Below are positions 1-40,756 of a DNA stretch of 64,000 nt, piece by piece (positions within the stretch are counted from its first letter, which is position 1; the number at the start of each line of letters is the position of its first letter). The stretch covers positions 77,066,001-77,130,000 of the forward strand of contig CM060732.1 in NCBI GenBank assembly GCA_030704615.1. Reading direction: 5' to 3'. Both the position numbers and the translations under genes were made by a program. This DNA is from Takakia lepidozioides. Taxonomy: Eukaryota; Plantae; Bryophyta. The notes under the pieces were generated by a model, which saw only the letters and a program-made list of their open reading frames with translations, made no database searches and was not told the origin of the DNA.

Positions 1-260
1 CTTGCTTTCATAGGGATTAGGCCGGATTTGATCACCGGTCAATCCTAGAGTATGCTGTCGGTGGTGAGGCTGGAGTGATGACCAGCAAGACCACCAGTGT
101 TTCTTCTATGGTGAGGCTGGGTTGATGACCAGCCAACCATAGGAGTTCTTGCGGTGGATGCAGGTGCAGGTGCCCTGAGCCATTGGGATATGACCCTTAA
201 ACTGCAACAGGTGCCCACCCGTGTCACTATTAGATTAGTACTAGAGCCTTATAGTGTCAC

Positions 261-1810
261 GTGGAGGAGGTGCACATTGTGAGTGTCATTACGGAGTTAC
301 CCAAGGGTTTTGAGGGGAGTACGGCTACAGGCAGTAACAGTGAGAGTGGGTTCACAAGACGAGGTATTCGGTTCAGACCACCTTCACCGCCACCCTCAAT
401 TACTGTAGAGTCAGACACAGACTCGGAGGCTTCATCAACAGGTGTGCACTTTCATTCGCCATTGTTGTGGGACGACATGGAGGAGATGTATGGAGCTACC
501 AAGGGGCCTCGTAGGTACTCTGGAGCTGTGGGCACAATCGAGTTGGATGACTTTATCCAGGAGTTCGACAGCTGGTGTGATTTGCAGCAGATGCGCAATC
601 CACAGCTATTCACCCCATTCATGGCGTGGAAGGGACTGTTCCAGCATTTGGAAGGCCCGCCTATGGACGATTACCACGAGTTCAGGCGAGGACATGAAGC
701 AGAGATTGAGGAGTGGAGGATGTATTGGTCACCTGACTACGTCTCCATTACTCGAGGCACGACGCGACCAGTAGCTGCATCAGTACCAATAGCTCCCACT
801 GCCAGCACTAGTAGTGGAGCAAGTAGTGCTGGTACTTCTGCAGGTGGTACCAGTTCAAAAGGTGCTACTACTCCTCCTGCCACAACTACAACACATGTGC
901 CTAGATTCAACCCGGTGGTGGAGTTCTTCCAGGAGTTGCGGAGGAACTACCAAGGTGTACGGACAGAGAAGCTGCGAAGTTTGCAAGACTTCCAGCGCAA
1001 ACCCAGTGAGAGCCTGCGAGAGGCGTACACTCGTATGAGGCGCTTGATAAGTGTGACCCAAGGGGTTACTGAAGCTCAGGCAATCCAGTTTTGGTATGGA
1101 ATTCTGGACAAGGAGCTCAAGAGAAGGGTGCGAGATGCAACCCTGTTACAAGCAGCCCAACCCACATTAGCAGATGTGTTTCTGCTGGCTGAGCGGATTG
1201 AGCTCAACATGGTGGAGGAGCGAGTTGTTACAATTGGATTTGGCAAGGACATGCCTGTACGGGGCACAGCTGTCAGCCCACAAGCACAAGGGACTGCCCA
1301 ACAGCGTGGTCAGGGGGGCAAGGTTGCCCAGCCCAAGTTCCATGGAGCTTACAGGGGACCTCAGGTGCAGAGGCCCGTGGCATCTTTTGCAGGCCAACAG
1401 CAACCAGGGGTGATATGTTGGACATGTGGAGGACCCCATGTCAAGAGAGATTGCCCAGAGAGTGGCAGAAGGCCGGCACAAGCACAGCCTGCACAGTTGC
1501 AGTGTGGGCATTGTGGCAAGTATGGGCATGGAGATGCCCAGTGTTATGACTTGCATCCTGAGTTGCGCCCAGGCCAGTTCCAAGGGAACAATGGTGGCCG
1601 GGGCGAGGTGGACCAGCCCAGAGAGGACGAGGTGGTCGGGCACGAGGTGCAGGCCAAGGGCAAGCTCAACATGGCCAAGGACGCGGAGGTCAGGGTGTTG
1701 ACCAAGGCATGGCCAACCGGCTTCAGCAGCTAGAGCAGAGGCTCGCTGCCATGGCTATATCAGCTCGGGGTACCGGCTCCCAGGCGGGATGGTCCACCTC
1801 CTGCTCCTGA
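261..1810 (+). CDS. gag: Gag (capsid-like region, two zinc knuckles, RGG-rich tail), frameshifted
   Basis: ORF 261-1733 contains LQDFQRKPSESLREAYTRM (retrotransposon gag major-homology-like), CWTCGGPHVKRDC and CGHCGKYGHGDAQC. Adding one G at ~1603 gives RGRGGPAQRGRGGRARG...MANRLQQLEQRLAAM. First in-frame ATG is at 477. Confidence 0.85.
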
Positions 1811-2399
1811 GGGAGGAGATATGGGAGGCATGGGATTTATGTGCGGAGCAGCACTACCACTAGAGCAGGTGGAGTCTGCTGCAGCCGTGACTCGAGGAGC
1901 AGCACGAGTTCCTGAGCCACGAGGTGCAGAGGTGGAATTGGATCCACAGCGTGGGGAGGCAAGCCGTCAGGCAAGGCTTCCTCAGTCATTCACATTGGCG
2001 GAGACTGTGTCGACGCCATCCATGGCACCTAGTTCTCGCCCGACTGTTACCGAGGCGGAGGTTACTATGCCATTGGGGAGAGCTACACGTGCAGCACTGA
2101 CACCTGCTGCCAAGGCTAGTGCGGCCGGTGTGTTATTGGGGGCAGCCACCTCTGTGTGTCAGGCCCCACTGTTCTCGGCAACCATGATTGCGACGCCGGG
2201 GGTGAGACCAGCTGCAGTGTTCAGACTAGCAGCAACACTCTGTGAGAGTGGGGAGGTCACTTCATCTTCTGCGGAGTTAGTGGAAGGTGTAGTGGCAGAG
2301 GGATCCTCGGATTTGAGGGTCAAGACTGCCACGGCTGCGCCATGGCAAGTTGCAGCTGCCAGGTTGACGGAGCTGCCAGCTAGGCCAGCCATTGAGCGC

Positions 2400-2830
2400 G
2401 CCATGGTGACACCTGGAGTTGTCTTGTTAGACAACCAGGGAGGCATTTTCACTTTGAGTGGACCGGCAGGCAAGAAGTACCGGCCACTGCGGGTCTTGTT
2501 GGACTCAGGAGCTCAGCCACTGATGTTGGGCAGAGCTGCTATTGCAGGTTTGGGCCTCATGGAGGCGGATATGGAGCCTTGTCCTTTCCAGATACAGACA
2601 TCTCTGGGAGGATCAGAGCAGGCTCGCGGCATGACACGGCATCAGTTGGCTATTAGACTGCAGCCGGATCATCCTGTAGATGGCTCAGTGATGCGAGCCA
2701 AGGCCATTGTGACAGACGCGGTCTCTTACGATGTCCTCGTTGGTGGGGCAGTGTTATACCCCATGGGCTTCACCCTGGATTTCTGGGAGGAGTCAGCATC
2801 CTACAGGCCTGGATGGCAGTCAGGGGATGG
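2400..2830 (+). CDS. Retropepsin-type aspartic protease domain of pol
   Basis: VLLDSGAQPLML (D-S-G at 2502-2510) and the downstream YDVLVGGAVL motif in ORF 1821-3476. Confidence 0.85.
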
Positions 2831-3199
2831 TCGCCGTGCACAGCTCCCTGTGACATTCATTGGGGGTATTGCAGCTGCCCAGCGGGGCAAGATGCCAACA
2901 CTAGCCGCCTTCACAGCTGCAGTTAGTTGGCCTGGAGAGTTGCTGGAAGGCAATGCCCATGCAGAGGATGTGCCACCTCCAGCAGAGCAGGATGACATGC
3001 ATGGTACGGCGGAGTTGCCTGCCATGGTTGCTCACACTCCGTTGTGGGGTACGAGCAAGGATTTGCAGCAAGCTGCTGATGGACGGGTGCAACAAGCTTG
3101 GGGAGAAGCTTTTGTACCGTCAGGAGAGGAGGAGAGTGCGGTGATTGCACCAGGGCCACCTCAGTTGTCGCCATTGGACACCACACCTCTTGTGTGGCA

Positions 3200-4175
3200 G
3201 CGGCCGGATGAAGGCATTTGCCTTCTGGACTTGTTTGGCGGGATCAGCACCGGATTGGCTGCTGTGCTACAGGCAGGTGTGCGGGTAAGGCGTTACCTGT
3301 ATGTGGAGAGGGATGAGACTGCACGACGCGTCTCACTGCGCCATGTGGCTCAGTTGGTACAGCAGTACCCTGACTTGTTGCCGTGTCTGCAGTTCGTGGA
3401 TACCAACAAGCCTTGCCAGCAGACATTTCCTTGTTGGGGGCGCAAGATTTGGAGCAGGTTGGCTCCATTGATCTGATAGTGGCAGGTTGGCCCTGCCAAG
3501 GGCATTCATCAGCCGGGCATGGCAATGGATTGCGAGACTCGAGGACGGGTCTGTTTTGGGAGATGGTGCGGATTTTGCGCGCTTGCAGCTTCATCAAGCT
3601 GTATCTCCAGCATACATCTTGGAGAATGTACCACTGATGGGTGATTCTCGGGCCAGGGTGATGGCCAGTGTGCATCAAGTCCGGTCGTGGCTTGGGTCAG
3701 CAGTGTTGCTGGATGCAGCTGCAGTGGGGTCACGGGCTCATCGTCCACGACTATGGTGGACTAACTTGATGCCACCCGCACTGCTCAAGCGTGCATTTGA
3801 TGGGGGTGCAGCGGCCAGCACACCTCACCGTGGATGGCATTTTGGACACAGGAGGCAGTCTCAACGTGTGAGACACGATGACCGTTCGCCTTTGGCAGTG
3901 GTCAACAGGGTGGGTCAACCACGAGCAGCATTACCTACACTGCTCAGCTTCCCAGGATCCCATGCTTTTCGGGATGGTGGACCTGGCCTCCTGTGGGATG
4001 CTCAGTTGCAGCAGTTAGTTAGTGGAGCCTAATGCCGACGAGCGAGAGCGGGCTATGGGGTTTTCCACTGGGACCACGGCGGTGCCTTCTCTTTCTGAGG
4101 CATCACGTCGTCAGGTGTTGGGGCAAGCAATGGATCTCAATTGCTTGACCTGGATTGTCAGCTTGGCTATGGCTG
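3200..4175 (+). CDS. DNMT3-like C5 cytosine DNA methyltransferase domain embedded in pol (split by small indels)
   Basis: Motif I LLDLFGGISTG (~3222-3254), motif II RYLYVERD, motif III DI, motif IV DLIVAGWPCQGHS (catalytic Cys 3494-3496), motif VI ILENV (ENV 3622-3630), motif VIII AHRPRLWWTNL, motif IX ERERAMGF, motif X RRQVLGQAM. These are colinear with DNMT3 (SLFDGIATG / GGSPCNDLS / FENV / AHRARYFWGNL / EMERVFGF / RQRLLGRSW). Frame breaks at ~3383, ~3580, ~3803, ~3852 and ~4020. Confidence 0.93.
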
Positions 4176-4465
4176 AGCAACGTAGAGTGCGGAGTGCACT
4201 TCCCTTGACGGTCTCTCTGCCTACCGAGACGGTACAGGCAGCGAGTGGGGGCGAGCCGGTGAGGACCACGAGGTGTAGACATCCATGGCACACGTGGGAG
4301 GTGCTCGAGGTTCAGAGGGAGTTGGCAGCGAAGGCAGCTGTGATGGATGAGGTTGGGGATTCTTCTCGGGATGAGGAGGTTCTCAATGATGAGATGATGG
4401 GGCAGGATGAGGCCTTGTCATTGACTGAGCAGGAAGGGGGTACTGCTCAAGAGGTTGCAGCATAG

Positions 4466-5600
4466 CAACCACGGGACGCGTCCTCTACCTCTAAGCCCAC
4501 TGGACTTAAGGTTGCAGTTACGGAGGACAATTGGGAGCCTGACATTGGACCCATTGTCACCGGAGGAGAGAGACGACGTATACGGCGGTTCCTGAGGGCT
4601 TACAGGAATTGCTTTGCCTTCAGTTTGAAGGACTTGGGAGCACTGAAGGGTCAAGAGATCCGTATTGAGTTGGCCACTGACACGCCAATCTTTCGGAGAC
4701 CCTATAGATACAGTGACATGGAGAGGTCTTTGATTCAGATGAGGACTCAAGATCTCTGGGAGGCAGGTTTGGTGGAGCTCTCTGGTGGAGAGTATGCTTC
4801 AGCCACAGTGATGCCAGCTAAGAAGGATGTCTATGGCAATTGGACGGAGAGACGTATGTGCGGTGATTACCGGCCTGTAAATCGTCAGACCAAGTCCGAT
4901 AGGTATGCCATGCCAACACCAGAGGAGATCTTTGATGCCATTGGGCATTCCAAGGTCTTTAGCACGTTGGATTTACGATCCGGATATCACCAGTTGCCGA
5001 TCAAGGAGGCGGATAAGCAAAAGACGGCATTCTGGGGGATCAATGAGCACGGGAAGGATTGCCTATACCAGTGGCGGTTCTTACCATTTGGGCTTAAAAA
5101 CGCTCCCGCTGAGTTTCAAAGAGTCATGGACAGGATTCTAGCAGGGGTGGAGTTTGCTCGGTGCTACATAGATGACATCATCATCTTTAGTGCTACGGTG
5201 GAGGAGCATGAGAGACACCTTCAGGGGGTATTTGAGCGCTTGAGGACGCACGGATTGAAGTTACATCCGGGCAAGTGCAAGTTTTTCCACAACCAGATTG
5301 AGTATCTGGGTCACATGATATATCCTGGAGGATTGGGGGTACAGCAGACTAAGGTAGAGTCCATTGCACAGGTTCCACGCCCCACGGATGTGAGCCGAGT
5401 TCGAGCTTTCATGGGGTTAGCAAACTATTACAGACGGTTTGTTAAGGGATTTAGTGCCATTGCAAAGGCTCTAACCAAGCTGACCAAGGTGGACCAGGAG
5501 GAGTGGCAGTGGGAAGATGAGCAAGAACAAGCTTTTCAAGAGCTCAAGGCGAGGTTGACCTCGGCGCCCATCTTGAGACGACCTATCAGGGGCGTCCTTT
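4466..5600 (+). CDS. pol: Reverse transcriptase (gypsy type) plus connection domain
   Basis: RMCGDYRPVN, FSTLDLRSGYHQ, LPFGLKNAPAEFQ, YIDDIIIFS, KCKF...YLGH, RAFMGLANYYRRFV. The frame is open from 4466, directly after TAG 4463-4465. Confidence 0.97.
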
Positions 5601-5965
5601 TCAGCTGCATACAGATTGGAGCATGCTGGGGCTTGGAGCGGTGCTCACACAGGTGGATGATGAGGGAAGAGAGTTCGTAGTGGCTTATGCTAGCCGCTCG
5701 AACAATGCTGCAGAGTCTAAGTATAGCTCATATGAGGGAGAATGCTTAGCTGCAGTGTGGGCCGTGGCACACTTCAGGTGCTATCTATACGGCAATCTCT
5801 TCACCCTTGTCACGGATCACCAACCACTCAAGTGGTTGATGGAGTCAGACAAGCTTACGGGGAAGCTTGCACGGTGGGCACTCATCCTTCAAGAGTATGA
5901 CTTTCAGGTGGTGCATCGACCGGGTTTGGTCAATCGAAATGCAGATGGGTTGAGTCGCAATCCAT
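5600..5965 (+). CDS. RNase H domain
   Basis: After a 1-nt frameshift at ~5590: FQLHTDWSMLGLGAVLTQ...VVAYASR...YSSYEGECLAAVWA...LVTDHQPLKWL...RWALILQEYDF...NADGLSR. Confidence 0.95.
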
Positions 5966-6329
5966 GCACGAGCCAGCAGGATGACACTGGAGCTCGGTGG
6001 CATGGTGAGACGGACGAGGAGATGGTGCCCGGATGGCATGCATCTGCATTTCTGTGTATCTTGGCAGCGGAAGGCCAGGTTGGACCTACAACAGGGATGA
6101 CTGTAGATCAAGTGTCTGAGGACCCTGAGGCCAGCAATGAGCAGGGTGGCGCCAAAGATATACATGAGGATTCAGTTGTGTTGGACTACCTCCGCACTGG
6201 AGACACGGCAGCCACTGTGACTGCCAAGGAGAGGGATCGGATCCTACAACGAGCCAAGAGGTTCAAGTGGGAGGGGACACACCTGCTCCGAGTGTGGGAG
6301 GATGGTCGAGTGAGGATTGTGCCTCACCC

Positions 6330-7440
6330 AACACAGCGGGCACGGTTAGTGCGGCATGCCCATGAGGAGTTGGGGCATTTTGGGGTGCGACGCACTCATA
6401 GTCTACTGCAGGGGCAGTATTGGTGGCGTGGTATGCACACAGAGGTGCAACAATTTGTGGCTAGGTGCATGGTGTGTGACAGGGTGCGTGCTTCATTCAA
6501 CGCCCCTACTCCACAATTGCACCCTCTTCCGATCATGGGATTGGGCTACAGGTGGAGTCTTGACTTCGCAGGGCCGTTGCCACTGACCATGCGCACAACA
6601 AGTACGTGTTGGTGATGGTGGAGCACTTCTCCAAGTGGATTGAATTGGTTCCATTGCCTGATAAGGCTAGTGAGGGAGCTGCGTATGCATTCTTGGATTG
6701 TGTGCTTAGCCGATTCGGTGCTCCAGCTGAGGTACTCACGGACCAAGGGAGAGAGTTCTTGGGGGAGTTTCAGGCTTTGTGTGACAAGGCCTTGATAGAC
6801 CACCGCACCACTTCTCGGGATCATCCTGAGGCCGATGGCTTGGCAGAGAGAGTTGTTCAGACAGTAAAGAGGGGTTTGCGCAAGTATGGCTTGCAGAAGG
6901 GACACCTAGGAGATTGGGACCTTCAGTTACCCTGGTTAGCCATGGGCTACAGGTTCAGCAAGCAAGCATCACTTGCCTCCTTCTCACCATACTTTCTTCT
7001 CTTTGGCCGAGAGCCGGATTTGCCTACATCCATTCGCAGAGAAGCTGCTACAGTTCTTAACCTTGACGATCCGGACGTGTGGGCACGTGCATGTGAGCAG
7101 CGTGCAGAGTTGTTCAAGAGAGTCATGCCCATGGCTTTCGAGAACCTTGCCATTGCACAACACCGTGATACGTTGAGGTATGCTACCATACGTGGTGGGG
7201 GCTATCGTCCTGGGGTTCGGAGATTCAACCCTGGTGACTATGTCTATCTGCAGCAGACTGCTCCTACGACCCTGGATGTGACTGCAGGACGTGTTATTTT
7301 AAAGGGTTCGAGATGTCTTGCCCTCAGGCGTCTTGGTCTTGGAGGGTCGGGATGGCATAACTTGGAAGGACCATGTGCGTAATTGTGCGCCATGTCACCT
7401 TCCGAATGTCGATGGCAGGATTGACCCAAACCTGGCAGTG
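6330..7440 (+). CDS. DDE integrase
   Basis: HHCC zinc domain (HEELGH...CMVC), catalytic SLDFAGPL / LTDQGREF / GLAERVVQT, and FNPGDYVYL. Frameshifts at ~6592 and ~7302. Confidence 0.95.
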
Positions 7441-7451
7441 GTATCTGCAGG

Positions 7452-7595
7452 TTGAGGTGCATGTTGTGTGGGTCTGCTAAAGGGGCAGCCACCATGCTGG
7501 TGTGTGATCGATGCTCTAGAGGTTGGCATATGGGGTGCTTGACTCCACCTCTTGAGATGGTTCCAGATGGGGATTGGTTATGTCCACATGCATTG
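7452..7595 (+). CDS. PHD finger at the integrase C-terminus
   Basis: CMLC...MLVCDRCSRGWHMGCLTPPLEMVPDGDWLCP(xC) fits C4HC3. The last Cys is restored by a 1-nt insertion at ~7587 (TGT CCA CA- TGC). Confidence 0.88.
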
Positions 7596-7844
7596 GATAG
7601 TGGGAGTGGATACAACCATGGGAGGCTAACAAGCAACGCAAGGCCCAGCTACAGGAGACCTTGAATACACGAAGTCCTGGCTCAAGTTCACAGATTGCAA
7701 GACGGCGACTAACGATGGGGCTACTCTTGTACCCGGCCTCTTGGTCTATAGAGTTTGAGTACGATAGGGACAGTGATACAGGACTTAGTACGGCTATGGC
7801 TATTACGTCTTGTAGCTATCTGGAGGTAGAGGGACCTATCCACC

Positions 7845-7857: not shown

Positions 7858-7859
7858 AT

Positions 7860-8391
7860 TGTGGTAGACTACTTTATTGTGCATATATGTGTGGTGTGGT
7901 TTGGACAGCGATGTAGTTGTGTAGCGATATGTATGCGCACGACAGCTGTCAAGTTAAATAAGCACAGTGTGAAAACAACTAGCATAAAACTAGTTATTTG
8001 TATTTAACACTTGGATTTAGGTCAAGTGTTAAATCAGGTGTCAAGTTTAGTTTGACACCTGGTCCGTCTTATCTTCACGAGAGCGGCAGTCGCGCAGCTC
8101 ATCTCTCTCGAGTTGAGCCTGCGCGACCGAGCTCCTGTGTGCGTTTAGATCTGAGTGTACTCATGATGGGAGGTAGGTTGTGTGTGGGTGGAGTCCCCAT
8201 AGCTTGGGGTGCCCCTGGCTCGACTACTGTTTTAAAGAGTGATGGTTTTGGATTTCACATTGTTTCTTGTGTGGAGAGCAGTGTCATTTGTTAGCTTTCT
8301 TATCATTGTGGTAGACTACTTTATTGTGCATATATGTGTGGTGTGGTTTGGACAGCGATGTAGTTGTGTAGCGATATGTATGCGCACGACA
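7860..8391 (+). repeat. 3' LTR (532 bp) with identical 85-bp direct repeats at both ends (7860-7944 and 8307-8391)
   Basis: TGTGGTAGACTACT...ATGCGCACGACA occurs twice, identical by eye. TG/CA termini with an imperfect TGTGGT/ACGACA inverted end. Follows the PPT. Confidence 0.8.
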
Positions 8392-12488: not shown

Positions 12489-12978
12489 TCTACGATCGCT
12501 ATGTAAAACCCCTCCGCGCTCAAGTTTCACGCGGGGACATCGTGATCTCTTCATCGTGATCGCTTCCCTGCCCGTTGCAAGACACCTGTCAGGCATTTCG
12601 GGCATACTCCAAGAAATTGACGACGATGACATGGCTACGAAACGTGGCGACGATGATGTGTCAGAGATGACGACATGGCTACGAAACGTGGCTACGTGGC
12701 GACGTTGACGTGTCGGAGATGACGACACGGCTACAAAACGTGGCAGTTATGATGTGGCGACGATGACGTGTTGGAGATGACGACATGGCTACGAAACGTG
12801 GCGATGATGACGTGTCAGAGATGACGACATGGCCACGAAACGTGGCAACGATGACGTGTTGGAGATGATGACATGGCTACGAAAACTGACGACGATGACG
12901 TGTCATAGGTGACGTGGCACTATGCACCCTATTTCGACTCTAAACTAGTCTCCGACCTTCGTCGTCTCTAGAACTTCC
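12489..12978. repeat. Dispersed repeat (copy 1) containing a ~44-bp minisatellite (~6-7 units, 12620-12915)
   Basis: Unit approximately GACGATGACGTGTCGGAGATGACGACATGGCTACGAAACGTGGC. The flanks (AAACCCCTCCGCGCTCAAG..CACGCGGGGACATC and GACGTGGCA.TATG.ACCCTAT...CTAGAA.TTCC) match 48046-48245. Confidence 0.85.
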
Positions 12979-13814: not shown

Positions 13815-16800
13815 TTACCGCACCTGGGAGTAAGAACAGAGTAGGCCCGAGGCATCAGAGCCAACGACAGCGAGATCACACACAGTGCACAAAGTGCCGA
13901 GTATTTCTGGCACAAATCGTGCTCTACAGTATGGGCAAGAAACATCTCGACTACCACGGTAGATTGGTACAAATGTGGCCCCGCATACGACAAATGGGTT
14001 GCGGGGATCGTAGTTCAGCTGCATCTCATCTTTGGGGCTCTTCTCACCCACTTGCAGAACCTGCAGGACAATTTGTACAATATCAGAGATCTTGCATTTA
14101 AAATTTTCTTCAAAAGCGTCACTCGACAAGCTCTGAGGCCTTGGGACGGCAGTCATGCCTGACTGTGGAAGCTCCCTTTAAGTTTGCAGCCATCAGAATC
14201 CAATGTTTGTAAATTTGGTGTTCAAACTGAACTGGATCATGACCCTACTTGAAGGAGCATACAACATTTTCTGCTCCACCATAGGGTATGCCTGCAATGA
14301 AGCAAAGCCGAGGGACTCGCTGCACCTGGTCACAACACAGTCATGCCGCCAGCAAATGGATATACTTAACTAATCATAAAACTACCTTCAAACAAATTCA
14401 GCCTCCAGTCTCCCACCACTAACAAGAAACAGCACAGACTACGCTTATGGGTAAGACAAATTTGCTTTATAACTAGCTGTGGGGCATCCCGACACCCCAG
14501 AGACGCTACAAATTCCAGCAGACATGAACTTTAGCTCCCCCATATGTTGCAGCAAGGTATAACCTCTACTGACATTAGGCCCACATATCCATCAAACTGG
14601 TTTGGGAGAGACTGGTCATATAAAGCAGAGAGGATACTTTCCATATCCGTTACATTACACAGAGGACCCAGCAGGCATGGACTTGTTTGTGAGGGGGAAT
14701 ATACCATCTCTAGAATAATTCTAAGTTTCAACGTGAACCTACCTGGCGTGCCTTAGTTGCAACTTGTGGAGACAGACTGAGCTCCAAGAGCCGGCGGGCA
14801 AACGTAGCTGCTGTGTTGTAGTTTTTGGACTTGAAGCACACAGACATAGCTGACTGCAGACTCAGCTTCAAATGTGTTGCTTGCAGGTTACAGTGTGTGA
14901 AATAGGCAGCCAGTTCCGCTTGCCGCACTGGATCATCTTTCAGCAGAGGGTCCTTTCTCTGTAGTTCAATGCGAAGTGCAAGGGCATAGTCTTTAGCAAT
15001 CCCAAGCAGCTCCTTAACTTCATCTACTTCTTTACGGGACTCCACCACAACCACTGGAATGGTTTGCAGAATGTTGAGAAATAGCCTGCATCCAACAACG
15101 CGCATAGCATGGTAAGGTCCACCCAGCATCTATTTCTACTCTGAAGGAAAACTTGTGATTAGGCTCCACTATCTGTTGATCTCCAACCTAGAAGCACCTT
15201 CGTTTACCATGCCTGATACAGGCAGATTTATGCAGAGGAAGAGTGAAGCCAGCCACAGGCAGCATAATTTTTACTGCCTCCAGTAGTACTACTTGTGTAC
15301 ATGAGGGAATTTTGGTTTCCCAGTTCTTCCTGTACAGACACAGAAATCCCCAGATGCTCATAGGTGTGCCCTGCATATGGCCAGGTGGTCTACGTAGAAA
15401 ATTCACCATAGAAATCTGAGAAGATAGAAATGAAACGTCAGCTATTTTGGTATTTCTTGTTTATGCTGTAACCCAACCACAACATCTCCTATTTGAGCGA
15501 GTGGGCAAATACTTTTACTGAGTTCAATTTGACCAGGTATGCCCCAGTAATACTTGCTGGATATTCTCGATCATATAGGACCCATGCAGCACCTACAAAA
15601 TGCATAGACCACAATTGTATGGATATCCAAGGATCATACCTAAGCGCCTCTGTGAACTTGCCCTCTGTCGTTGTCTTGTATGCCATCTTGAGCTTCTCCT
15701 CCAGCGAGGACAGCTTATAAATAAGTGCAGGTGAGCCCCGCACATTGGGGCTTGTAGTCTCACTCCACCCTCTCTCTAATGCCAGAGGCAGGGGCAACAA
15801 AGTTGGGAGTGAGGTATGACTGGCTAGGTGGAGCTCAAGGAACACACTCTTTAGGGGCTCAAAATTCTTAATCCCCAGCTGCCGGCTCAATAGCCGCACA
15901 GCTGTGTCAAAGGCCCCTGCAGCCGCATGCTCTCCCGCGAGAGATGAGGTTTGAGCCCATAGTTCACTGCGTGGTAAGCCTGGGTTTGGAGCACCATTAA
16001 ATGCAGACCCATTGGCCACTGGTTCAGAAACAGCCATGTCAGGGGGAAGCTCTAGGTCTTCCATCTCCCAGCCCGCTTCCTCCTCTTCCCCTGAATGGAA
16101 GTCCACACATAGAAGATTGCTTAATATCTGCTCCATTATGGCAGACTCCGCATTTAATGCAGAAAGCTAGCACTAAAGCCATGTTCATGTCCACCCACTA
16201 AACAAACTGCAAATTAAGCATATAACAAAGAACATATTCTATTGCTTTGTAGGATTTTGTTTTGCTCGACATTCTCGTTGGGAACAACTTACTGAGATAG
16301 CAATGAGCCAACAAAATATTAACTAACAACTCACCTTCACCTTTCTCATGGTGAACCTCGCCATTTGCATCTCCATTCTCATCACCATTAACCGCCTCTG
16401 CAAAATTGAGCTCCTCACCCCAAGCCCCCTCAGTGCCATCCTCTTCCATTTCTGTTGCCGGACCCGTCTCCCCAAAGGCACCCTCAAAAAAGCCCTTACT
16501 GACCATCAAGAGAGGCCAGTTACTATCCTGTACTATTGGCTTGGGAGGCAGCAGTAGCAGTGATTTCTCTGGAGGAGGAACCGAGGGGAGGGCACCATCA
16601 AGCTGCTCTGCTAGCCTCTCAGCCACCTCTGTTAGTCCGTGGACCTTTGCAGTGGCATAGGCCAAAGGTATATGCCCAGATTCCTCCAGAATTGTGACCC
16701 TCTCCTTGATGTCCCCAAGATAGAGAGCATTGTGAAACCGCCCCATGACATCGCTGCGCATCTCCGCAATCTTGAGCATCTTTGCGAGCTTTTCCAGGTT

Positions 16801-19800
16801 TCCAGTAATAAGGTACAGGAAAGAGAGTCGCTCGAAGTTCTTTGTCTTCTGATAGGAGTATTCCACAATCTCATGGTTTCCCTGCAATGGTTACACATAC
16901 TTGAGAGTGCAAAACATGGAAGGAAGCTCCAGAATGTGAGGCCTTCCTGAATTGGTCAAAATACAATCTATTGACAGCAACTTACACTCTGCTGCTTTCG
17001 ACAGAGTGCTTTGACCATTCACAAGTCACAGAGTCCAAAACCAATGCAGCACATAGGCCCACCAGAGCTAGATGGAGACAGTGGCCACTGTGAACCCACC
17101 AGCACAGGAGCATGAAAAAGCTCAAACCATTCTGTATGGACAGTAAAACTTCCATTTCCCCCTCAGGTAAAGAAACTGTGAATGGGCAAGAGTGCAGGAA
17201 AAACAGGTTGCTGTGCAGTCTCAATTGCAAATCCTCTGTATTCTGAGGTGGCCATGGCGAGCATAGTTACGCGCACCACACTTATGTCGACATTGCAAAG
17301 TACAGACACAAAACAGTTGTACTCATCAGATAAACCCCAGGGAACACCCATTGCTATTGTCCACAACCGGTCTAGACTGACATCCAGGCCACAGAGAGAG
17401 GAAGAAAGAAGAAATACAGAATAACTTTATAACATCCAAGCAAAGCTCGAAGAAATTGTGTGAGACAAGAGCCCATTACCCAAGAAAGCAAGAAAGAGAA
17501 TTACTTCATAACATCCACAGAGAGAAGATTAAATGCTCTGTGAGTCCACTCGGGACCTAGAGGGGGGGAGAGAAAGAGAGAGAGCTCTAGGTACACCATT
17601 CATACCTGCCGGAGCGCTTCAATGCCAAGCCTGTGCCAGTAATCCTTCTCATCAATCTCCTTAGCTGATGCCACCGCAACTGCAGTATTACCACACTCCA
17701 CTGCCAAGTTGAATCGTGTGTGCTCATCTTTGACAAAGTGCAAAGCCACTTCAGGGAAACCTTTCTGTTGTAGGTATGCGATGATTGACTGGCCACAAAG
17801 TTTCATATTTTGTATCATTTGAACCACCTGATCATTGTCTCAGAAACCAGTGCAGTAGAGAAACATCAGCACAGGCTCATCCAGAAAGGCAAACAAAGGC
17901 ATGCATTTCCATTGCCAGAGCAATGACCATGTGACAACACGCTAAGTGTCCAGGGGACTGCTGATGGTTACTTCCTCTCTGCCGACCAATGCAGGAAAAC
18001 CAGTAGTTTTGGAAAAATAAACTTGAATACAGTTTGTAGCATTCTTGACCGGCTACCCAGTGGATGCAGATAATCTTGTAACAATGAACGTATGAAGAAA
18101 ACACCACCAGCAGAGCCAATACATTACTCACCGCCTGTGAGATCCCTAGGGCTACATAAAATAAGCACTAACATCACAATTTCACACATCCTCATCAGAT
18201 TGCCAGTCATTCTCATATGTACAAGTGGGTCAGATCAGTTCATCACAAGTGGGGACATGTGTCTACCTGATCATATTTCCGTTGGAGGAGAGCCAACTTA
18301 AAGCTATACTCAGTAGGATCGATCTGAATAACACGGTTCTTCCCATCTCGATCCAAACAATAAAGCGTGTTCTGTGCAACCTTGGTGACATAGATGGGGA
18401 CATCAAGGGTGCGCACAATCCCACTGTCACCATTCGGTAGACAGTACTTGATGTGGTTGAGTGTTGTGTAGAGAAACACACCTGATTCATCCCATGCCCC
18501 ACTCTTCACACGAATGGTTTCATGAACTGTGCAGAGGTGTACAAGCTTCTTGGTGGTAATGATGATGGAATGCTTGCTGAGAAGGGCCACCATCTCCATG
18601 TCATTTGACCAGACAACGTACTTCACAAATGGGGTGCTCAGATCCCCAAGCGTGGTACGCTGCTGCAAATCAAACAAAGCCACCTTGTCCTCTGACCGGC
18701 AAAGCAAGGTGCCAGTGCCTGCGTAGAACACATCGGTTGTGGGGACAGGAAGGCTGCATTTCTTGGTCACGTCATTCTTCATGTCCTTGATCAAGACCTG
18801 GTCCATTGAATCTTGATTTGAGCTACATGATGCTCTACTAAGAGAAGCAGATAGATTGAAAGTCCCCCAACAGGGTATTACCATGCAATTGTAGCCCACC
18901 TTAGAAATGGCTAAGGAAAATAAATTTCACACTACAAAACCCTTGGGTCACTCTTGGTATCCCCAAAAGACCATGAAACCCCACTAGGACCACTCACAAG
19001 TGGTTTCGTTGTTTGAAATTCTAAGGAAAAGATGAAACAAACAAGCAGTGGCAGTGCTTCTGGGGACACTGCCCACACGAGTTGCAGCTCTGGTCAACAA
19101 TCACTGGAGACCCTTAGTGTCATCCTGCATCGGAAAGCTAATCTTCAGCAAAGGAACCGCAGTCAGACTAACCCTGGGGTCAGTTGCACACAACCAAGCA
19201 GAAATCAACTTTTATGCCAGCAAGTTGTTGCGAACACTGGAGTTGTAGTAAGCTAGAACAAGTACCTGGTTGTGAGTCCTGTCCAAAACAGCAAACCGAT
19301 TCCGAGCCACAAACACTGCAGATGAGCCCAGACCCCTCTTGGCATCTGGTGCATTCTCGCCTTTTCCAGTACTATCCTTGGGAATGATATAGAGCTCATA
19401 CGAACCCCCATCAACATCTGAACACAGTAGTACTGCATTTTCAGCTGAATTGTAGGAAAGCGATCTGGGGGCTTGATTCATACCCGTTGATCCCGCTCGT
19501 CGGATTGAAATCAGAGGGTTCTCTCTTCCAGTTGGGAAGTCATAAGTCCGAAGATAGCGCTCCTTAACATAATACAGAGCACCCCCCTGCACAGCAAAAG
19601 CAGGCCTCTCCCTCTCCAGCTTGAAGACTATCATGCCACTGTCATGTCCTGCTGCTAGTATATTCATCTCCGGGTGTGCTGCCAGGATCCAAAAACGGTC
19701 GTGCTCTCTTCGGAAAGTCTGCATGCCAGAGCGCTTTGACATATCCCACACTCGGATGCTTTTGTCCTCAGAGTTTGACACAATGATGTCTTGGCGGGCA

Positions 19801-21595
19801 TGGAACAATACACATGACACATTATTCACGTGTCCACGTAGGGTGTCTACCTCCCATGCCTTTGTATCTGTTCAATGTGGCAGGAGAAACACAAGTTGTG
19901 AGGTTATAGCCTGTATAGCTAAGCAGATTATGCATACTCAGAGAAATATGAATTCTTTGACAATCAGTTCTGTACGACATACAATGTGATATGCAGCATG
20001 TGGTCTCACATCAAGGGGGTAGAAAATGCTGGCCCACCTATGCAAGGTGCCAATACCAGTATGAACATTAGTGCAGGATCCATACAGTGCAATAAGAGGC
20101 ACAGGTCATCCCAGGCAATGAGCAGTCATAACTTATCTACATCCTCAGTTCTATCAATGCATCAAAGCAGTGGTCCCAAAAAACAGCAGTGCAGAGGACA
20201 TTGTGTCCTAGCAAGGAAACCTGCAGCTAATACTTCAGGTTTTATGGAAAACCTTTCAGATGCAGATCTGGCCACATTTCCAGGCATCTGCAATCCCTGA
20301 CCCACTTCTAGGGACAAAGAACTCCAAAGTGCTCAATGGTGATTTATGTGTCAATTCCCGGCAGATGGTTTTGGCTACAGTATGTTCAAGCACAATAAAA
20401 GCTGGAGTTGTAACCAGCCAGACTGCACATCTGGTAGAAACACTTGCAACTTGCGACATTGGTGGAGGCAGAGGAAAAGTAAATGTTAGGGAAAGTGCTT
20501 ACCGTTCATGCGCCACAATTTAACTTGGCGATCATCTGCTCCTGATACAATGAGTGGGAGTGAGGGATGAAATGATGCCCAATTCACACCGCGGTCATGG
20601 CCCTCCAGCACATACTTTACCACCGCATCCCCTCCTCCAAATAGATCAGTATTCATCTGTGTCAGCCGCATTATATCGTCAGCTGGAGCAACAGACTTCT
20701 TCCTCAATGCACCAATGTCCCACACTCGCACTGTTTGGTCAAGCGAAGCCGATACCACGAGATCTTCTTTTAGATGAAATGAGGCACACATCACATAGTG
20801 GTTGTGGCCTGTGAGCACAGAAATGCAAGTGCGCGACTGCCAGTTCCAAATACGAATAGTTTGGTCATCACTTGCAGTGACGATCCACGGATACTCGGTG
20901 TGGAACTGGACAGTTCGAATGTAATCCAAGTGACCCAGCAGCGTGAAGAGGCATCGTCGCAGCTTGTAGTTCCATACCTTAATCTTGTAGTCATCCCCTG
21001 CATTCAACAGCCCAGATTATTTATCCACAGCACGTTTTTATCCAGCAATCTCGATTACTTCTACCTGGGAGCGGAGCTACCCATGGACGGAGATTTCTTC
21101 TGCTCTCAGGTCCTATCTACGTGTTCTGATCTGTGATTGTCCCACTGTATAAAGTGCAAACCACAGCGCATTTGCTCACTCCACTGATCCCAGTGTGAAG
21201 ATCTACCATTATGGGTCATAAGGAGCTGCAATGTGCGACTGCACAGAGGTTGCAGAGTTTGTAGCTGACCTAAAGCAACAACCAGTACGGCACTGAGAGA
21301 TAGAAATCTTCGTGAAAACCTGAAAGAAACTGACAGCCCTCAAGACCCACAATGTGATGCAAAAGCGGGGAAGAAGAGGACACATACCTCCAGATACAAA
21401 AAGCGGCTGAGATTTGTGGAAATGGACCCCCCGGACAGGACCCTCATGCTCGTCAAAGCGGTCGATGAGAGTGCCCATGCGGTAGTCCCACAGCTGAATG
21501 ACACCACTGTGCAAACTGGCCAGAATCCATGGCCGCCTCGGATGAAAACTCAGACCCTTCACCCGATTGCTCTTGGTCTCGAACTTGGTCAGCAT
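13815..21595 (-). CDS. COPA: Coatomer subunit alpha (alpha-COP), 9 coding exons: 21595-21388, 20997-20503, 19867-19266, 18797-18267, 17827-17606, 16881-16335, 16090-15640, 15085-14743, 14060-13815
   Basis: Starts [19 protein letters not shown], has WD40 repeats and the coatomer WDAD region, and ends [20 protein letters not shown]...CPYC...[10 protein letters not shown]. All introns are GT-AG with consistent phase. Confidence 0.98.
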
Positions 21596-22234
21596 CGTGG
21601 ATCTGTTTTGTGGGCCAGAGTGTCCCCCAGCCCAGATAGCTTCAGCAAACAACGAGGAAGAGAAGCATCAACTGCTCGGGCACATCAATACGTGCAGGGT
21701 GCCTTTGTGGGCCAGCGATGGTTGGCTTTCAAACTACAGATCTGAGCAGAAGAACTCGCAGACATGCAATCTGCTCGACAAAGTCATCACTCTACTGGCG
21801 AAAACAATCAGTGCTTTTAATCGTCCACGTCCATTGTTTTCGTTTCCTGTCCACCGTTTTTCGTTATCTTTTTGTGCGCGACGAACTCCTTCGTCTATAA
21901 GGAAGGTCCAACAGAGCTCGTTCCTCAACGGACGAACTGATGCAGCTCGGAATCGCGAGCAGCTGAACAGCTGAACGTGTTCTGGTCGTTCTTCCATGCG
22001 AAACGCATGCTGAGGAGCACCATGTTTTCCTTGGAGAAGATGTTCATGGGCACTACGCGCAAACAAAGAGGGGAGGAGACATGCCACTGGATCAACGGCC
22101 AACTCTGAAACCATGTGCATTTCAGTCTGCAGACTAAAAATCGCAAAGGGTGCAGCTTCGGTGCTAACATTGTAATTGAGCTACCTTTGTGGAACACTGG
22201 AGCTTCTGAATCTGGAGCTTCAAGGATAAGCACA

Positions 22235-26192: not shown

Positions 26193-27806
26193 TCAGGCAA
26201 CGGAAGAACCCCGGCCTCTGCGAAGTCTTGTGCCGCCGAGGAAATCTGGAGCCGGTCTTGGGAGTAGGAGTACTGCTGCGATGCCACCAAGAAATGCAAA
26301 GATGGATCCAAGCAAAAACGCGGGCAAATTTCCACCCCCAAAAAGCTCGTCCCAGGGACCACCTCCCACAGAGACCAACACTTGTGGCAGAACTACGGCG
26401 AGATTCATCAAACCCATCGACAAACCTTGACCACCACCAATTTTATCTGTGAAACTTGCTGTCAATGCATAAGGCACACTGTAAATCACTGCAAGTGGTA
26501 CTCCAAGCACTGCAAAAAGGACCACAGATGAAATCGTGACAGACAGAGGTGGCCCTGTAGGCCCAAAGGTAAGGGTTGATCGTTTTGCTGCTGTTGTGAT
26601 GAGCGCAGTCGCCGAAAAACAAGCTGCCAGTACCATGTTAGCCAGGCCCCACACATAGCTCGAACCCAATTTCCGGCAGAGATACTCAATTGAGAGCGAT
26701 GACAGTCCCAGCACTAGGGAATTGAGCATGAGACCGAGGGAACCCACGTGAACACCGTCTGCGTAGAGCTTCGAGACAAGCGGGTCTGAGGAAGATGGTT
26801 CGCCCCGGTACACCTCGCGTCCCATCCAATCAGTATCAAAGAGAAAAAATGGGTACAAGGCTATCCAAGTGAGTGCAGTTACAAGCATGATATACCACAT
26901 GGGCCGTGGGAGGTTCTTCAGTGCTTGAATCAACTCCCAGAACAACGCCTCCGAGTCCTCCTCCTCCTCATCCTCCTCATTCTCACTACCTCCCGAGACA
27001 CTTGCAGCACTCTTTGCAGCCTCTGGATCAGTGGGCTTTTCGGAGAGTAACGGGGTGGTAGAATCCGTGACCACATGCTTGCTGGCGATTGGATCCCATG
27101 GAATTTCCGACGCTGCTGTTAAGCTCACAAGAGTCGTAAACACCAGCACGAGGATGGCAAGGAGGAATGCAGATTTAAGATTGGCACAGGCAACATCACA
27201 TGCTCTTGTATACGTGAAGGGGAAGACTTTGTACCAACCACCGAAGGCCCCAGTAGCGTACCCCAGGACATTGCCTACAGCCATGAAGAGAGAATAGTAT
27301 GCATTCGCTCTTCGAGTTCGCCGTTGGTCCTTCCCAGTGAAGTCTGCCAACAGAGCTCGGCAGGGACCCTGCAACGTATTGTTAGCCAAGTCCAAGAGCC
27401 AGAATCCAACAACAAAAATGACGATTGCGCGCGGTCTGAAGCCAAGCGAATCCCCCAACAAGTAGCCCAGATCGGCAGCATACCCAATGACGAACACAGC
27501 AACAATTACAAGCAGGCCCCCCACAACTATGAACGGCCGCCGCCTGCCCCACACACTGGTGCAGCGATCGCTGTAATGCCCCACAACGGGCTGCACGAAC
27601 ATGCCCGAGATCGGCCCGCACAGCCATATCAAACTCGCCCACGCATGCGGAATTCCCAACTCCTGCACGTACGGCGTCAGCAGCGACAGTTGCAACGCCC
27701 ACCCAAACTGCACTCCCGCCGCCACCGACGCCACCTGCGCTAGCGCCCTCAACGGCACTCGATTCTTCCCTTTGTTGGACCTCCTCTCCCCCCCCTCCCA
27801 CCCCAT
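26193..27806 (-). CDS. Sucrose/H+ symporter (SUT/SUC, SUT4/type III-like), single exon, 537 aa
   Basis: VASVAAGVQFGWALQLSLLTPYVQELGIPHAWASLIWLCGP, SDRCTSVWGRRRPFI, DLANNTLQGPCRALLAD, FDTDWMGREVY, GGPWDELFGGGNLPAF. ATG at 27806; the extension upstream is (GA)n. Confidence 0.96.
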   Translation of the reverse strand: MGWEGGERRSNKGKNRVPLRALAQVASVAAGVQFGWALQLSLLTPYVQELGIPHAWASLIWLCGPISGMFVQPVVGHYSDRCTSVWGRRRPFIVVGGLLVIVAVFVIGYAADLGYLLGDSLGFRPRAIVIFVVGFWLLDLANNTLQGPCRALLADFTGKDQRRTRRANAYYSLFMAVGNVLGYATGAFGGWYKVFPFTYTRACDVACANLKSAFLLAILVLVFTTLVSLTAASEIPWDPIASKHVVTDSTTPLLSEKPTDPEAAKSAASVSGGSENEEDEEEEDSEALFWELIQALKNLPRPMWYIMLVTALTWIALYPFFLFDTDWMGREVYRGEPSSSDPLVSKLYADGVHVGSLGLMLNSLVLGLSSLSIEYLCRKLGSSYVWGLANMVLAACFSATALITTAAKRSTLTFGPTGPPLSVTISSVVLFAVLGVPLAVIYSVPYALTASFTDKIGGGQGLSMGLMNLAVVLPQVLVSVGGGPWDELFGGGNLPAFLLGSIFAFLGGIAAVLLLPRPAPDFLGGTRLRRGRGSSVA

Positions 27807-27811
27807 CTCCC

Positions 27812-27818
27812 TCCCTCC

Positions 27819-27854
<36 letters not shown>

Positions 27855-28069
27855 TCTCTCCTCTCCCTCCCTTTCTCTCCTCACGTCCTAAGATTCCTTC
27901 CCTGCACACACCTCCGCTTCTCCCTGACACATAAGTTATAGACTTTCCACTCAAACACCTCTCCCCCTCCCTTCGTCCCTCTCCGCCACGTGGCACCCCC
28001 CCTCATCCCTAAACCCTAACAAACTCTGCTTCTGCTGACCACCCCGCCACCCTCTCTTCTGTCCTCCAT

Positions 28070-37107: not shown

Positions 37108-38584
37108 TAGGGAATTCCAAAAAGGCCTTGATGTGAAATACATCGCAATTCACTTGATCACCCCCCCTAAAAGTGCGCAATTCAATTGAAATGTCTTTGC
37201 AATTCAATTGAACTGCTAAAACTAGCTTGAAAACAACCCTAATGTGCAATTCAATTGAATTGCCAATTCGCAATATATAATTTAACTTATTTTTTTAAAT
37301 ATAATGTATATACATGTGTGTATATATATATTCAAATTATACATATACGCATAAAAAAATGTAAGCTGAAAATATATGTTGCCGGTCTATTCTTGTTGCC
37401 CGTCTATCTATCTTTGCCCGTGGTAAGGCTTGAGCACGAGATAAGCCTAAGGAAGAGCGAGAGAGGGAGAGAGAGAGAGAGAGAGAGAGAGGAAGTCACG
37501 AAGCGCTTGCCCTAAAAGCGGGATTGTCCCTCTTTGTGGATGTTGGTGCCAATATATGGCTATGTACATATACCAAACATGATACCAATGTAAGAGTATC
37601 AATGTATAAGAGTTTGATATATTAAACTTGTATGGAACACACATCCCAACTTCAACATGGTACCTTTGTAAGGGTATTGAAACAATATTATTTTTGATAA
37701 TTCTCAAGATGAACAGATCATTTGTTTTCTTTGGGGTTGTGTCGTGGCCAGATACTAGTCTTAGGGGACTACATGATGAGCTAGAGAGGGAGAGAGATCA
37801 ACAACTTCCTGTGATTCACTGGCAAAAAAAACATGGTTGGCTCTGAATGAAACAGACAAAATTAAACCTGACAATTGTTGACAGGCTTTCCCTGTATCAT
37901 CATATAGTCCCCTGACAGTAGTATCTGGCCCCACGACACAACCCCAAAGAAAACAAATGATCTGTTCATCTTGAGAATTATCAAAAATAATATTGTTTCA
38001 ATACCCTTACAAAGGTATCATGTTGAAGTTGGGATGTGTGTTCCATACACGTTTAATATATCAAACTCTTATACGTTGATACTCTTAATTGGTATCATGT
38101 TTGGTATATGTACATAGCCATATATTGGCACCAACATCCACAAAGAAGGACAATCCCGCTTTTAGGGCAAGCGCTTTGTGACTTGCTCTCTCGCTCTCCC
38201 TTAGGCTTATCTCGTGCTCATGCCTTACCTTGGGCAAAGATAGACAGACGGGCAACAAGAATAGACCGGCAACATGTATTTTCAGCTTATATTTTTGTAT
38301 GCATATATGTATAATTTGAATATATACATATATATACATGTATATACATTATATACAGAAATAAGTTAAAAATTATATATTACAATTCAATTGAATTGCC
38401 AATTCGCAATTCAATTGAACTGTGTGCCGACAATTGAATTGAATTGCAAATTAGGGTTGTTTTCAAGCTAGTTTTAGCAGTTCAATTGAATTGCAAGGAC
38501 ATTTCAATTGAATTAGGCACTTTTAGGGGGGTGATCAAGTGAATTGCGATGCATTTCACATCAAGGCCTTTTTGGAATTCTCTA
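37108..38584. mobile_element. 1477-bp non-coding foldback element (two ~670-700 bp inverted arms) with 6-bp TSD CCTGGT
   Basis: 37108-~37790 is the reverse complement of ~37890-38584 along its whole length. Termini TAGGGAATTCC / GGAATTCTCTA. CCTGGT at 37102-37107 and 38585-38590. Confidence 0.9.
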
Positions 38585-38769
38585 CCTGGTGGTTGCTCTG
38601 CCGTCCTCTATGCATAATTGGCCATCCCTGCCCCATTCTGTCTGCCGAATCGGCAGTAGACCCTGGGTGGCCGATTTGGCCTGACAATTAGTCTCAAAAG
38701 TGGCAGAATACTCCACACATGCATTTAAGATGGTGCAGGAACTTCTGAGAGTGATAGAGAGGGAGAAGC

Positions 38770-40756
38770 ATGAAGTTGGTCGCGGGTTCATACGAGAGAT
38801 TCTTGTGGGGATGGCAAGTGAAGGAGAAGAAGCAGCATCTGGAATGGACCTTCTCGTACCCTGCACACCAGGGGCCCATCAAATGCGTGGCTGCTTGCGG
38901 GGCGGTGGTGGCGACGGGGGGATCGGATGACACCATCAAGGTCTTTGATCTGAATGCTCAGAAAGATATGGGGTCCCTCTACAAGCACACTGGGGCCGTG
39001 ACGTGCCTCGCGTTTCATGGACCGCGGGGTAACCCTAATTCCATGGCTAACCACCCAACGCACCTGTTCAGCGGGTCCGAGGACGGCACAATCGGCATAT
39101 GGGACACTGATGCGTGGATTCATCTTGCAGAGATGAAGACGAAGAAGGGGTCTAAGAGTGTAGTGAATGATTTGACAATTCATTCTTCGGGAATGGTGGC
39201 CTTCTCCGTGGAGAGGGGCGGTCACATGAGGATGTGGAATCTTAGCAAGGCTCGGTGTATCTTTACGACAAAATTAGCATCAGAAGCATCGATTGTCAAG
39301 TTTGCACCACAGGCTGGCGAGACTTACTCTTTGGTGAGAGGAGCACACGTGGAGATTCGTAATGCTGAGAGTGGAGTTGTGCTTCAAACTCTTGAACATG
39401 CCAGACGTGTGTTCTGCGTAGCCCAACAACAGGTATGTCCCTCGCACATGTAGGTTTGGCGAATCACTGTAGTGTTGGTAAATTATGCTTAGCATCTGAT
39501 TGCCTGAGAGAGTGAAACACGTATTCATGTTACAATTGTGGGCTTCAAACAGGACAATATGTTGGTCACTGGAGGGGAAGATTGCACTGTGAGGGCCTGG
39601 GACACCCGAACAGGGAAACTGGCATGGTCAGTTGCCAGTGCCCATTCGAATCGAATCAGAGGACTTGCTGTCCTGGGATCCAGTCCGGGGACAGATGAAG
39701 AATCTGCTGGACTTCCGAATCTTGTAGCTTCTGCGTCAACTGACGGGATGGTGCGGGTGTGGGATGCTCGCATGGTGGACAGTTCCGAGGGAGGGGCAAC
39801 GCCTGCTCCAGTTATGGAAGCAGAGACTAAAGCCCGACTCACCTGCCTCGTAAGCTGTGGGGCTGCTAAGAGTGAGTTTGCAAATCTCGTCATCTGCAAA
39901 CTTTATTTTTGTGCTTTGCATGTCTGTCTGCTGTAGTTTTAAGCCACCTCCTTTTTTCCATATACTACCCTTCTTCTCTCAGAATACATCAGATATTAGC
40001 AAAGGAGTGGTATTATTTTGACGTGAAGATTGTGCTTTGATTGCAGAATCTGCCCTAGCTATATCTGGGACAGTCAAGGAAGAGCAGGGTGTTTCATTGG
40101 AAGAATTGTCATCCCCCAGGGCACTGCCTATACAGCTGTCAAGCAAGCAAAAACGGAAGATGATTTCAGATAGTGCTCTTGTCAAGGAATTTACAGATGG
40201 GCACCCTCACAAACAAGTGAAGGCAAACACAGAAAAGAATTTAGCAAGTCAAGGTTGTGCCAAGATCACAAAATCTGCAGTCAAGCAGGTTGTGTCGTTG
40301 GAGCAGCTGTCATCCCCTCGGGTGCTACATCCGCAGCTATCAAGCAAACAGAGAAGGAAGAAGAAAAGTGCAATTTCAGATGGTGCTGTTGCCAAACAAC
40401 TGGCAGATGGGCGCCCCCACAAACGTGTGAAGCCAAAAACAGAATGGAACTTAGCAACTCAAGATTTTGCTTTGACCACAGAATCCTTACCAACTGCATC
40501 TGGGACAGTCGAGGAAGAGAAGGGCGTGTCATTGGAACAACAGCCATCTCCCAGGCCGCTGCCTACGCAACTATCAAGCAAACATAAAAGGAAGAAGCAA
40601 AGTGTGATTTCAGATGGTGCTGTTGTCAAACAACTGACAGATGGGCGCCCCCACAAGCAAATGAAGCCGAACACCGAAAGGAAGTCAGCAACAAAGCCAA
40701 TTGGCAATACAAAGTCACCAAAGAGAAGACTACATGTCAATCCACGGAAGAGTTAG
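38770..40756 (+). CDS. PAK1IP1/MAK11-like nucleolar WD40 protein (60S biogenesis). Exons 38770-39432, 39553-39871, 40047-40756
   Basis: Diagnostic start MKLVAGSYERFLWG, WD40s (AHQGPIKCVA..ATGGSDDTIKVFDL; HSNRIRGL..VASASTDGMVRVWD; ARLTCL) and a Lys-rich tail. In-phase GT-AG introns. Confidence 0.88.

Follow-up and report, generated by a model that had tools for sequence, protein, structure and literature searches.

A conserved in-frame TAG, a candidate readthrough codon, follows the methyltransferase in bryophyte-type relatives of Gypsy-Dnmt3 retrotransposons

A single in-frame TAG at 4463..4465 (+) separates two coding regions of a retrotransposon located near the start of the window (the whole stretch of 64,000 nucleotides that was analysed), the first encoding Gag, protease (PR) and a Dnmt3-like cytosine methyltransferase and the second reverse transcriptase (RT), RNase H (RH), integrase (IN) and a PHD finger. 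Judged from the sequences of this copy and its relatives, the TAG is very probably a programmed readthrough stop, which would put the methyltransferase together with Gag, on the more abundant side of the switch. The original prediction held that methyltransferase motifs IX-X and the RT share one frame split by this TAG, and the frame at 4022-4462 was indeed found to run on into the RT. Positions 4460-4474 read GCA TAG CAA CCA CGG, so that a CARYYA hexamer stands directly 3′ of the stop, in agreement with the TMV-type context (UAG CAA CCA) that had been proposed. The chance of CARYYA following a given stop, calculated from the base composition of the element, is 0.0013; among the 204 plus-strand stop triplets of the element it follows just one, TAG 4463, and in the whole window it follows 4 of 2688 (+) and 3 of 2605 (−) stop triplets. 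Comparison by tblastn with four relatives also upheld the claim that this TAG is the sole nonsense codon left after repair of indels, as the homologous path contains no stop other than 4463. Every other stop within the matches (1731, 3371, 4016/4030, 6561, 7380 and 7422, plus four within a single over-extended match) sits in an off-frame overhang beside a frame change. The window copy carries about nine frameshifts by the same comparison; probably it is itself non-functional, or the assembly contains indel errors. Contigs from one sequencing run that aligned to 3900-5000 numbered 12,789, a figure that is not a copy number and that suggests a very large element family in the host. The changes among these sibling contigs were mostly C>T or G>A, and across 4435-4482 no difference was present among the matches listed (40 of 200).

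The first open reading frame, ORF1 (477..4462, +; delimited by tblastn with Marchantia proteins P0017 and P0018), encodes Gag, zinc knuckles, an aspartyl protease, the Dnmt3-like methyltransferase and an acidic linker, and is interrupted by frame changes near 1600, 1790, 3380, 3582 and 4020. Pfam matches to Gag, PR, RT, RH, IN and PHD extend over 255-7661, with weak matches to Gag (Retrotrans_gag, 921..1088, +; E 0.0013, under the curated cut-off) and to the protease, which has a DSG motif (2481..2702, +; E 0.03) and for which ORF1 of the unbroken relative L033 gives an E value of 2e-4. The C5 cytosine methyltransferase (3213..4186, +) shows motifs I, IV (PC), VI (ENV), IX and X in translation, distributed over three reading frames. 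The corresponding domain of L033 matches PF00145 (E 2e-13), as do other relatives, and when compared with solved structures is closest to DNMT3A (E 7e-8), with DNMT3A, 3B and 3C making up the top matches. ORF2 (4466..7661, +; Pfam and tblastn) contains, all on the plus strand and by Pfam, the RT (4850-5320; RVT_1, E 6e-33), RNase H (5593-5898), integrase (6328-6827) and PHD finger (7458-7589), with frame changes near 5600, 6594, 7300 and 7452. The Gypsy domain order Gag-PR-RT-RH-IN is thus present in the window ORFs and in L033 and L068, Gag and PR being weak in Pfam. Beyond ORF2, the 3′ terminal repeats (7858..8391, +) consist of two identical 87-nt units, 7858-7944 and 8305-8391, on either side of a 360-nt segment. 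They are consistent with the B-A-B terminus of split direct repeats, and the 5′ end of the element precedes base 1. The complete A...B-A-B pattern of DIRS-like split direct repeats was found in relative L037, and in L020 and L024, like the window, the 3′ segment is repeated; most of the 19 loci tested, being cut or decayed, were without the full pattern.

Since a Dnmt3-like methyltransferase occurs together with a DIRS-like repeat arrangement, the element is, on its sequence, related to the Gypsy-Dnmt3 elements that de Mendoza et al. described in 2018. The nearest proteins are from Marchantia, Sphagnum, Calypogeia and metagenomes, which makes a plant of bryophyte type the likely host. The Gypsy-type KnitGypsy-Dnmt3 of Klebsormidium nitens is described as having a Dnmt3-related methyltransferase in the Pol ORF and DIRS-like repeats (PMC5890265). 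Gypsy domains, a Dnmt3-related methyltransferase and DIRS-like repeats (here in L037, with B-A-B in the window) are therefore common to both, whereas the methyltransferase, located within the Pol ORF in KnitGypsy-Dnmt3, here closes the Gag-PR ORF ahead of the conserved stop (PMC5890265). The main text of that paper makes no mention of readthrough, PHD, Gag or Marchantia, and three of its supplements gave no match. A 2026 preprint mentions streptophyte Gypsy-DNMT3, with no mention of readthrough or a stop codon in the portion consulted. Elsewhere in the window are host coatomer alpha (COPA) exons (14731-21667, −), an MFS sugar-transporter-like ORF (26196-27887, −), a WD40 ORF (38758-39450, +), a fragment of a Ulp1-type protease (58617-58964, +), nested long inverted repeats of fold-back or MITE-like type with 87-98% complementarity (37108-38584), and a tandem array of about 44-nt units (12617-12938).

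Conservation of the stop was examined in 68 fetched loci, comprising 61 from metagenomes (alignment of ten ORF1 proteins), six viral loci and one from an RT alignment; the viral contigs proved to carry six unrelated methyltransferases and zero RT relatives. Twenty-five of the 68 were dropped, 17 without a motif IX-X match and eight in which the junction could not be read (contigs that were cut, a deletion, copies that were broken, or a methyltransferase after RNase H), and the remaining 43 plus the window gave 44 junctions. Counts at these junctions are not independent, the lineages having common ancestry: TAG is present in 34, TAA in nine and TAC in one, and after copies were merged at 98.5% identity (n=35) the respective numbers are 27, seven and one. 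A sense codon in most siblings had been named as the outcome that would count against readthrough; with CAG at none of the 44 junctions and one TAC, the idea withstood this check. All TAA junctions belong to a decayed Sphagnum-like family in which neighbouring G>A changes are also common. The TAC replaces the stop in the decayed locus L026 (6960-6962; TAC CAA CCC) and encodes Tyr, the residue inserted by TMV-type readthrough; its occurrence in a single broken copy is probably due to chance. The distance from the stop to the N-terminal RT motif is 15, 19, 21 or 22 codons, always in frame, and the same stop position is found in lineages that are about 65-80% identical in RT.

Two of the relatives are unbroken, and in both ORF1 encodes Gag-PR-DNMT, ORF2 encodes RT-RH-IN-PHD and the junction TAG is the only internal stop. 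L033 has an ORF1 of 1369 aa, the junction TAG CAG TTA and an open frame of 1047 aa past the stop, that is, one TAG in 2418 codons versus 115 Gln codons; L068 has an ORF1 of at least 1162 aa, the junction TAG CAA TCA and likewise 1047 aa of ORF2, with one TAG in 2211 codons versus 84 for Gln. The intact element L068 (1-9285), which has a 127-nt terminal overlap (a collapsed repeat), lies in an assembly labelled uncultured cyanobacterium and is likely to be eukaryotic contamination; P0012, from a bacterial MAG, resembles it in this respect. ORF1 proteins of Marchantia stop at the matching place, eight of them with a tail of 120-124 aa past motif IX, and Calypogeia P0315 and several metagenome proteins also end at the junction position. 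These Marchantia and Calypogeia proteins (P0017, P0019, P0274-P0287, P0315) carry annotations as genes of the host, either hypothetical or for a DNA methyltransferase, and several of the Marchantia ORF1 gene models map to the V chromosome.

The nucleotides that follow the stop in the window, CAA CCA CGG (4466..4474, +), comprise the CAR-YYA hexamer and a third codon with a final G, as in xxA-UAG-CAA-UUA-xxG, a motif that is reported as fully conserved across 105 tobamovirus sequences (Firth et al., PMC3159437). Among the relatives, the hexamer is CAA CCA in L007 and L040, as in the window, CAG TTA in L033/L028, and CAA TCA in L068/L045 and L052; L031, a copy with further stops, reads TAG TAG CCA, and the Sphagnum-like family has CAA CCC (once CCT) followed by ATG. 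In the junction alignment, which had been proposed as a check on both stop and hexamer, the stop and the frame are kept and exact CAR-YYA is present in six of eight lineages, but the largest family, with 26 of the 35 distinct copies, differs at +6. The two remaining lineages have one mismatch each, the second codon is YYA in seven of the eight, and by locus strict CARYYA amounts to only 8/44, as the CAA CCC family dominates. Because the first codon may be either CAA or CAG, and the second CCA (Pro), TTA (Leu) or TCA (Ser), the constraint appears to be on nucleotides. The 45 nt upstream of the stop show 27-47% identity between sub-groups and no more than 67% within one sub-clade. A final G closes the third codon of all 11 representatives (9/9 in the alignment columns) through seven variants (CGG, GTG, AGG, ATG, GAG, CAG and CCG), while the frequency of G at third positions in the intact ORFs is 0.27-0.35; a uniform final G by chance is unlikely, at roughly 0.35^5-0.35^6, a range to be read with the lineages not being independent. 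An A at −1 is present in the window, as in only 4/9 representatives. The remaining in-frame stops within matching regions of the fetched loci served as a control; of these, 0/502 were followed by CARYYA and 10/502 by CARYYN.

A stem 3′ of the stop was predicted in the window and in most relatives from folds of 120-135 nt starting at the stop, with its 5′ arm at 4476..4491 (+) and its 3′ arm, across GGERRR codons, at 4563..4579 (+) in the window. The predicted stem pairs bases 10-26 past the stop with TG(G/A)E codons situated 75-100 nt further on, and the cognate 3′ site was the best downstream partner in 7/9. Arm sequences differ between two sub-clades, with better pairing within than across them, and each sub-clade alignment gave the stem separately; RNAalifold with a joint alignment of all ten sequences returned no pairs. 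Values of z for the stem against synonymous shuffles ranged from −0.4 to −4.3, and single-sequence folding was strong in 3/8 (window −2.6, L033 −2.7, L068 −4.0) and weak in five. Covariation in the sub-clade stem was not above that of shuffles, the score being reached by 31/500. A long 3′ stem beginning 10-14 nt downstream of the stop is hence plausible as a second signal, at about even odds on these folding models. It would resemble the alphavirus type II stem, for which a spacer of 8-12 nt and a loop of about 100-150 nt are given, whereas in tobamoviruses none was seen by Firth et al. (PMC3159437).

In the proposed mechanism, most ribosomes would terminate at the TAG and release Gag-protease-methyltransferase, and a few would add a residue there, likely Tyr, and go on to translate RT-RNase H-integrase-PHD. 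This would depend on a signal of the tobamovirus type, UAG-CAR-YYA-xxG, possibly aided by the predicted stem, and the outcome would be methyltransferase in Gag-like amounts, with the copying enzymes a small fraction that is fused to Gag for packaging. We infer readthrough, its rate, the role of the stem, how abundant the methyltransferase is and where it acts from the conserved stop, frame, context and layout. CAR-YYA is reported to be enough for readthrough in plants, with Tyr inserted in the case of TMV and, relative to the sense control, an efficiency of about 20% in one assay (PMC2754532, PMC3542737).

The main rival, although unlikely, is that ORF2 has a start of its own, an ATG or GTG located 3-5 codons past a true stop and used through termination-reinitiation or on a shorter RNA. 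It is strongest for the CAA CCC ATG family, since an ATG stands at +3 in these Sphagnum-like copies; one is also present at +5 in L028, L052 and L031, and a GTG at +3 or +5 in L007, L033, L045 and L068. Tca2 provides both a precedent and a warning, in that its in-frame stop region showed no detectable local readthrough in yeast and a promoter lies at the junction (PMC2194720). However, the unbroken elements L033 and L068 carry GTG as opposed to ATG, the first 15 codons of ORF2 in the window include no ATG, GTG, CTG or TTG, and the first AUG of ORF2 is at codon 117 in L033, L068 and L045, 85 in the window and 48 in L007. Separate initiation also leaves CAR-YYA-xxG unexplained, in one sub-clade the RTG is part of the 5′ arm of the predicted stem, and a free RT-IN protein would presumably require some other route of entry into the particle. 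Removal of the stop by splicing, with the AG of the TAG or one nearby as acceptor, is a little less probable again. Stops are removed in this way in Ogre elements, gene models from Marchantia and Sphagnum (P0001, P0002, P0004, P0007) bridge the junction with predicted introns, and the Sphagnum-like family has a T-rich run upstream of the TAG. These intron-bearing models are nevertheless predictions that disagree with one another, the sequence upstream of the TAG is purine-rich in the window and unconserved among lineages, and splicing would select neither an exonic CAR-YYA-xxG nor an ORF1 that ends in frame at exactly that place.

Decoding of TAG as an amino acid by the host, or editing of UAG in the RNA, is very improbable. 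TAG reassignment does occur in some green algae, but TAG occurs once per intact element, among more than 2,200 codons, and of the named hosts Marchantia, Calypogeia and Sphagnum are the nearest; contig X5 from another study, which is taken as RNA only as a guess, retains T-A-G and has three differences, all of them C>T. The explanation considered alongside the original prediction, in which a copy-specific CAG>TAG deamination struck a dead element and the context arose by chance, draws on the broken state of the window copy, with its nine or so frame changes, and on the predominance of C>T and G>A among siblings. Since the stop is kept in relatives, including the unbroken ones, and its position is common to distant lineages in which CAG is absent from every junction, deamination of a single copy is excluded for practical purposes and is the least probable of the four.

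The distribution of the stop was examined in an unrooted RT tree of 70 rows (quick search, no bootstrap). Every RT from a stop-bearing element groups within a single clade of 26 rows (SH-aLRT 99), which also includes a Coleochaete transcript ORF, P0008, that encodes RT-RH-IN-PHD only. The clade holds one fused member without a stop (P0129, full-length P0288), and the stop is therefore not obligatory. Outside the clade are relatives from Closterium and metagenomes in which the methyltransferase is fused upstream of the RT with no stop. The unrooted tree suggests a possible gain of the stop within the stop-bearing clade. A third architecture, a single ORF with the methyltransferase between RNase H and integrase, was seen in P0012, P0015, L046, L047 and P0327-P0357.

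In-frame stops are known from other retroelements, among them RIRE2/Kamikaze, and SIRE1 uses a CARYYA-like context. The cited papers describe such stops in MuLV gag-pol, Tca2 and SIRE1 pol-env (PMC2194720) and in Tj1, activity of which was lost once the stop was removed (PMC4600332). Common to these systems and, as proposed, to the present elements is a single in-frame stop that sets the ratio of structural to enzymatic products; they differ in that the known switches follow Gag or Pol, whereas the switch here would follow Gag-protease-methyltransferase, and in that MuLV uses a pseudoknot and Tca2 and Tj1 use UGA in place of UAG (PMC2194720, PMC4600332). A split into Gag-PR and RT-RH-IN is reported for some plant groups (PMC6317226). 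With the tobamovirus Type I site the junction shares UAG, CAR-YYA, the final G of the third codon and a polymerase downstream, and in the window also the A at −1 (PMC3542737, PMC3159437, PMC2754532). Unlike tobamoviruses, it belongs to a nuclear retrotransposon, keeps the −1 A in a minority of representatives, reads CAA CCC in one family and has a predicted long 3′ stem. SymbioLINE-Dnmt of Symbiodinium also has a methyltransferase in an ORF upstream of the RT ORF, but is a LINE with an unrelated methyltransferase lineage, and readthrough is not described for it in the cited text (PMC5890265).

Dnmt3-carrying Gypsy elements and readthrough in retroelements are each known, and their apparent combination here was not found in the literature searched; the search returned neither a readthrough switch after a methyltransferase nor the bryophyte junction, and older papers on recoding in plant Gypsy elements may hold something similar. 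The balance of evidence leans slightly towards a partly intact liverwort and moss Dnmt3 clade having moved the switch behind the methyltransferase, with a tobamovirus motif and an alphavirus-like stem, so that DNMT and Gag would be made one to one. If true, a de novo DNA methyltransferase would either form a bulk part of the particle or modify the DNA of the host in bulk, in contrast to algal relatives, in which the methyltransferase is made as a fusion with RT. Why a retrotransposon should encode a cytosine methyltransferase of its own is regarded as an open question (PMC5890265). An enzyme at the level of Gag, far above RT and integrase, would better fit dense methylation of cDNA in the particle or action on host chromatin, and a helper role at one per RT would be the poorer fit. 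The clade supplies natural contrasts in its stop-split and fused forms and that with the methyltransferase between RNase H and integrase, and is represented in Marchantia, a model liverwort. In gene annotation the elements appear split or spliced, with ORF1 entered as a DNA methyltransferase gene of the host. The bryophyte junction would, moreover, be a candidate for the plant-virus leaky stop in a cellular genome.
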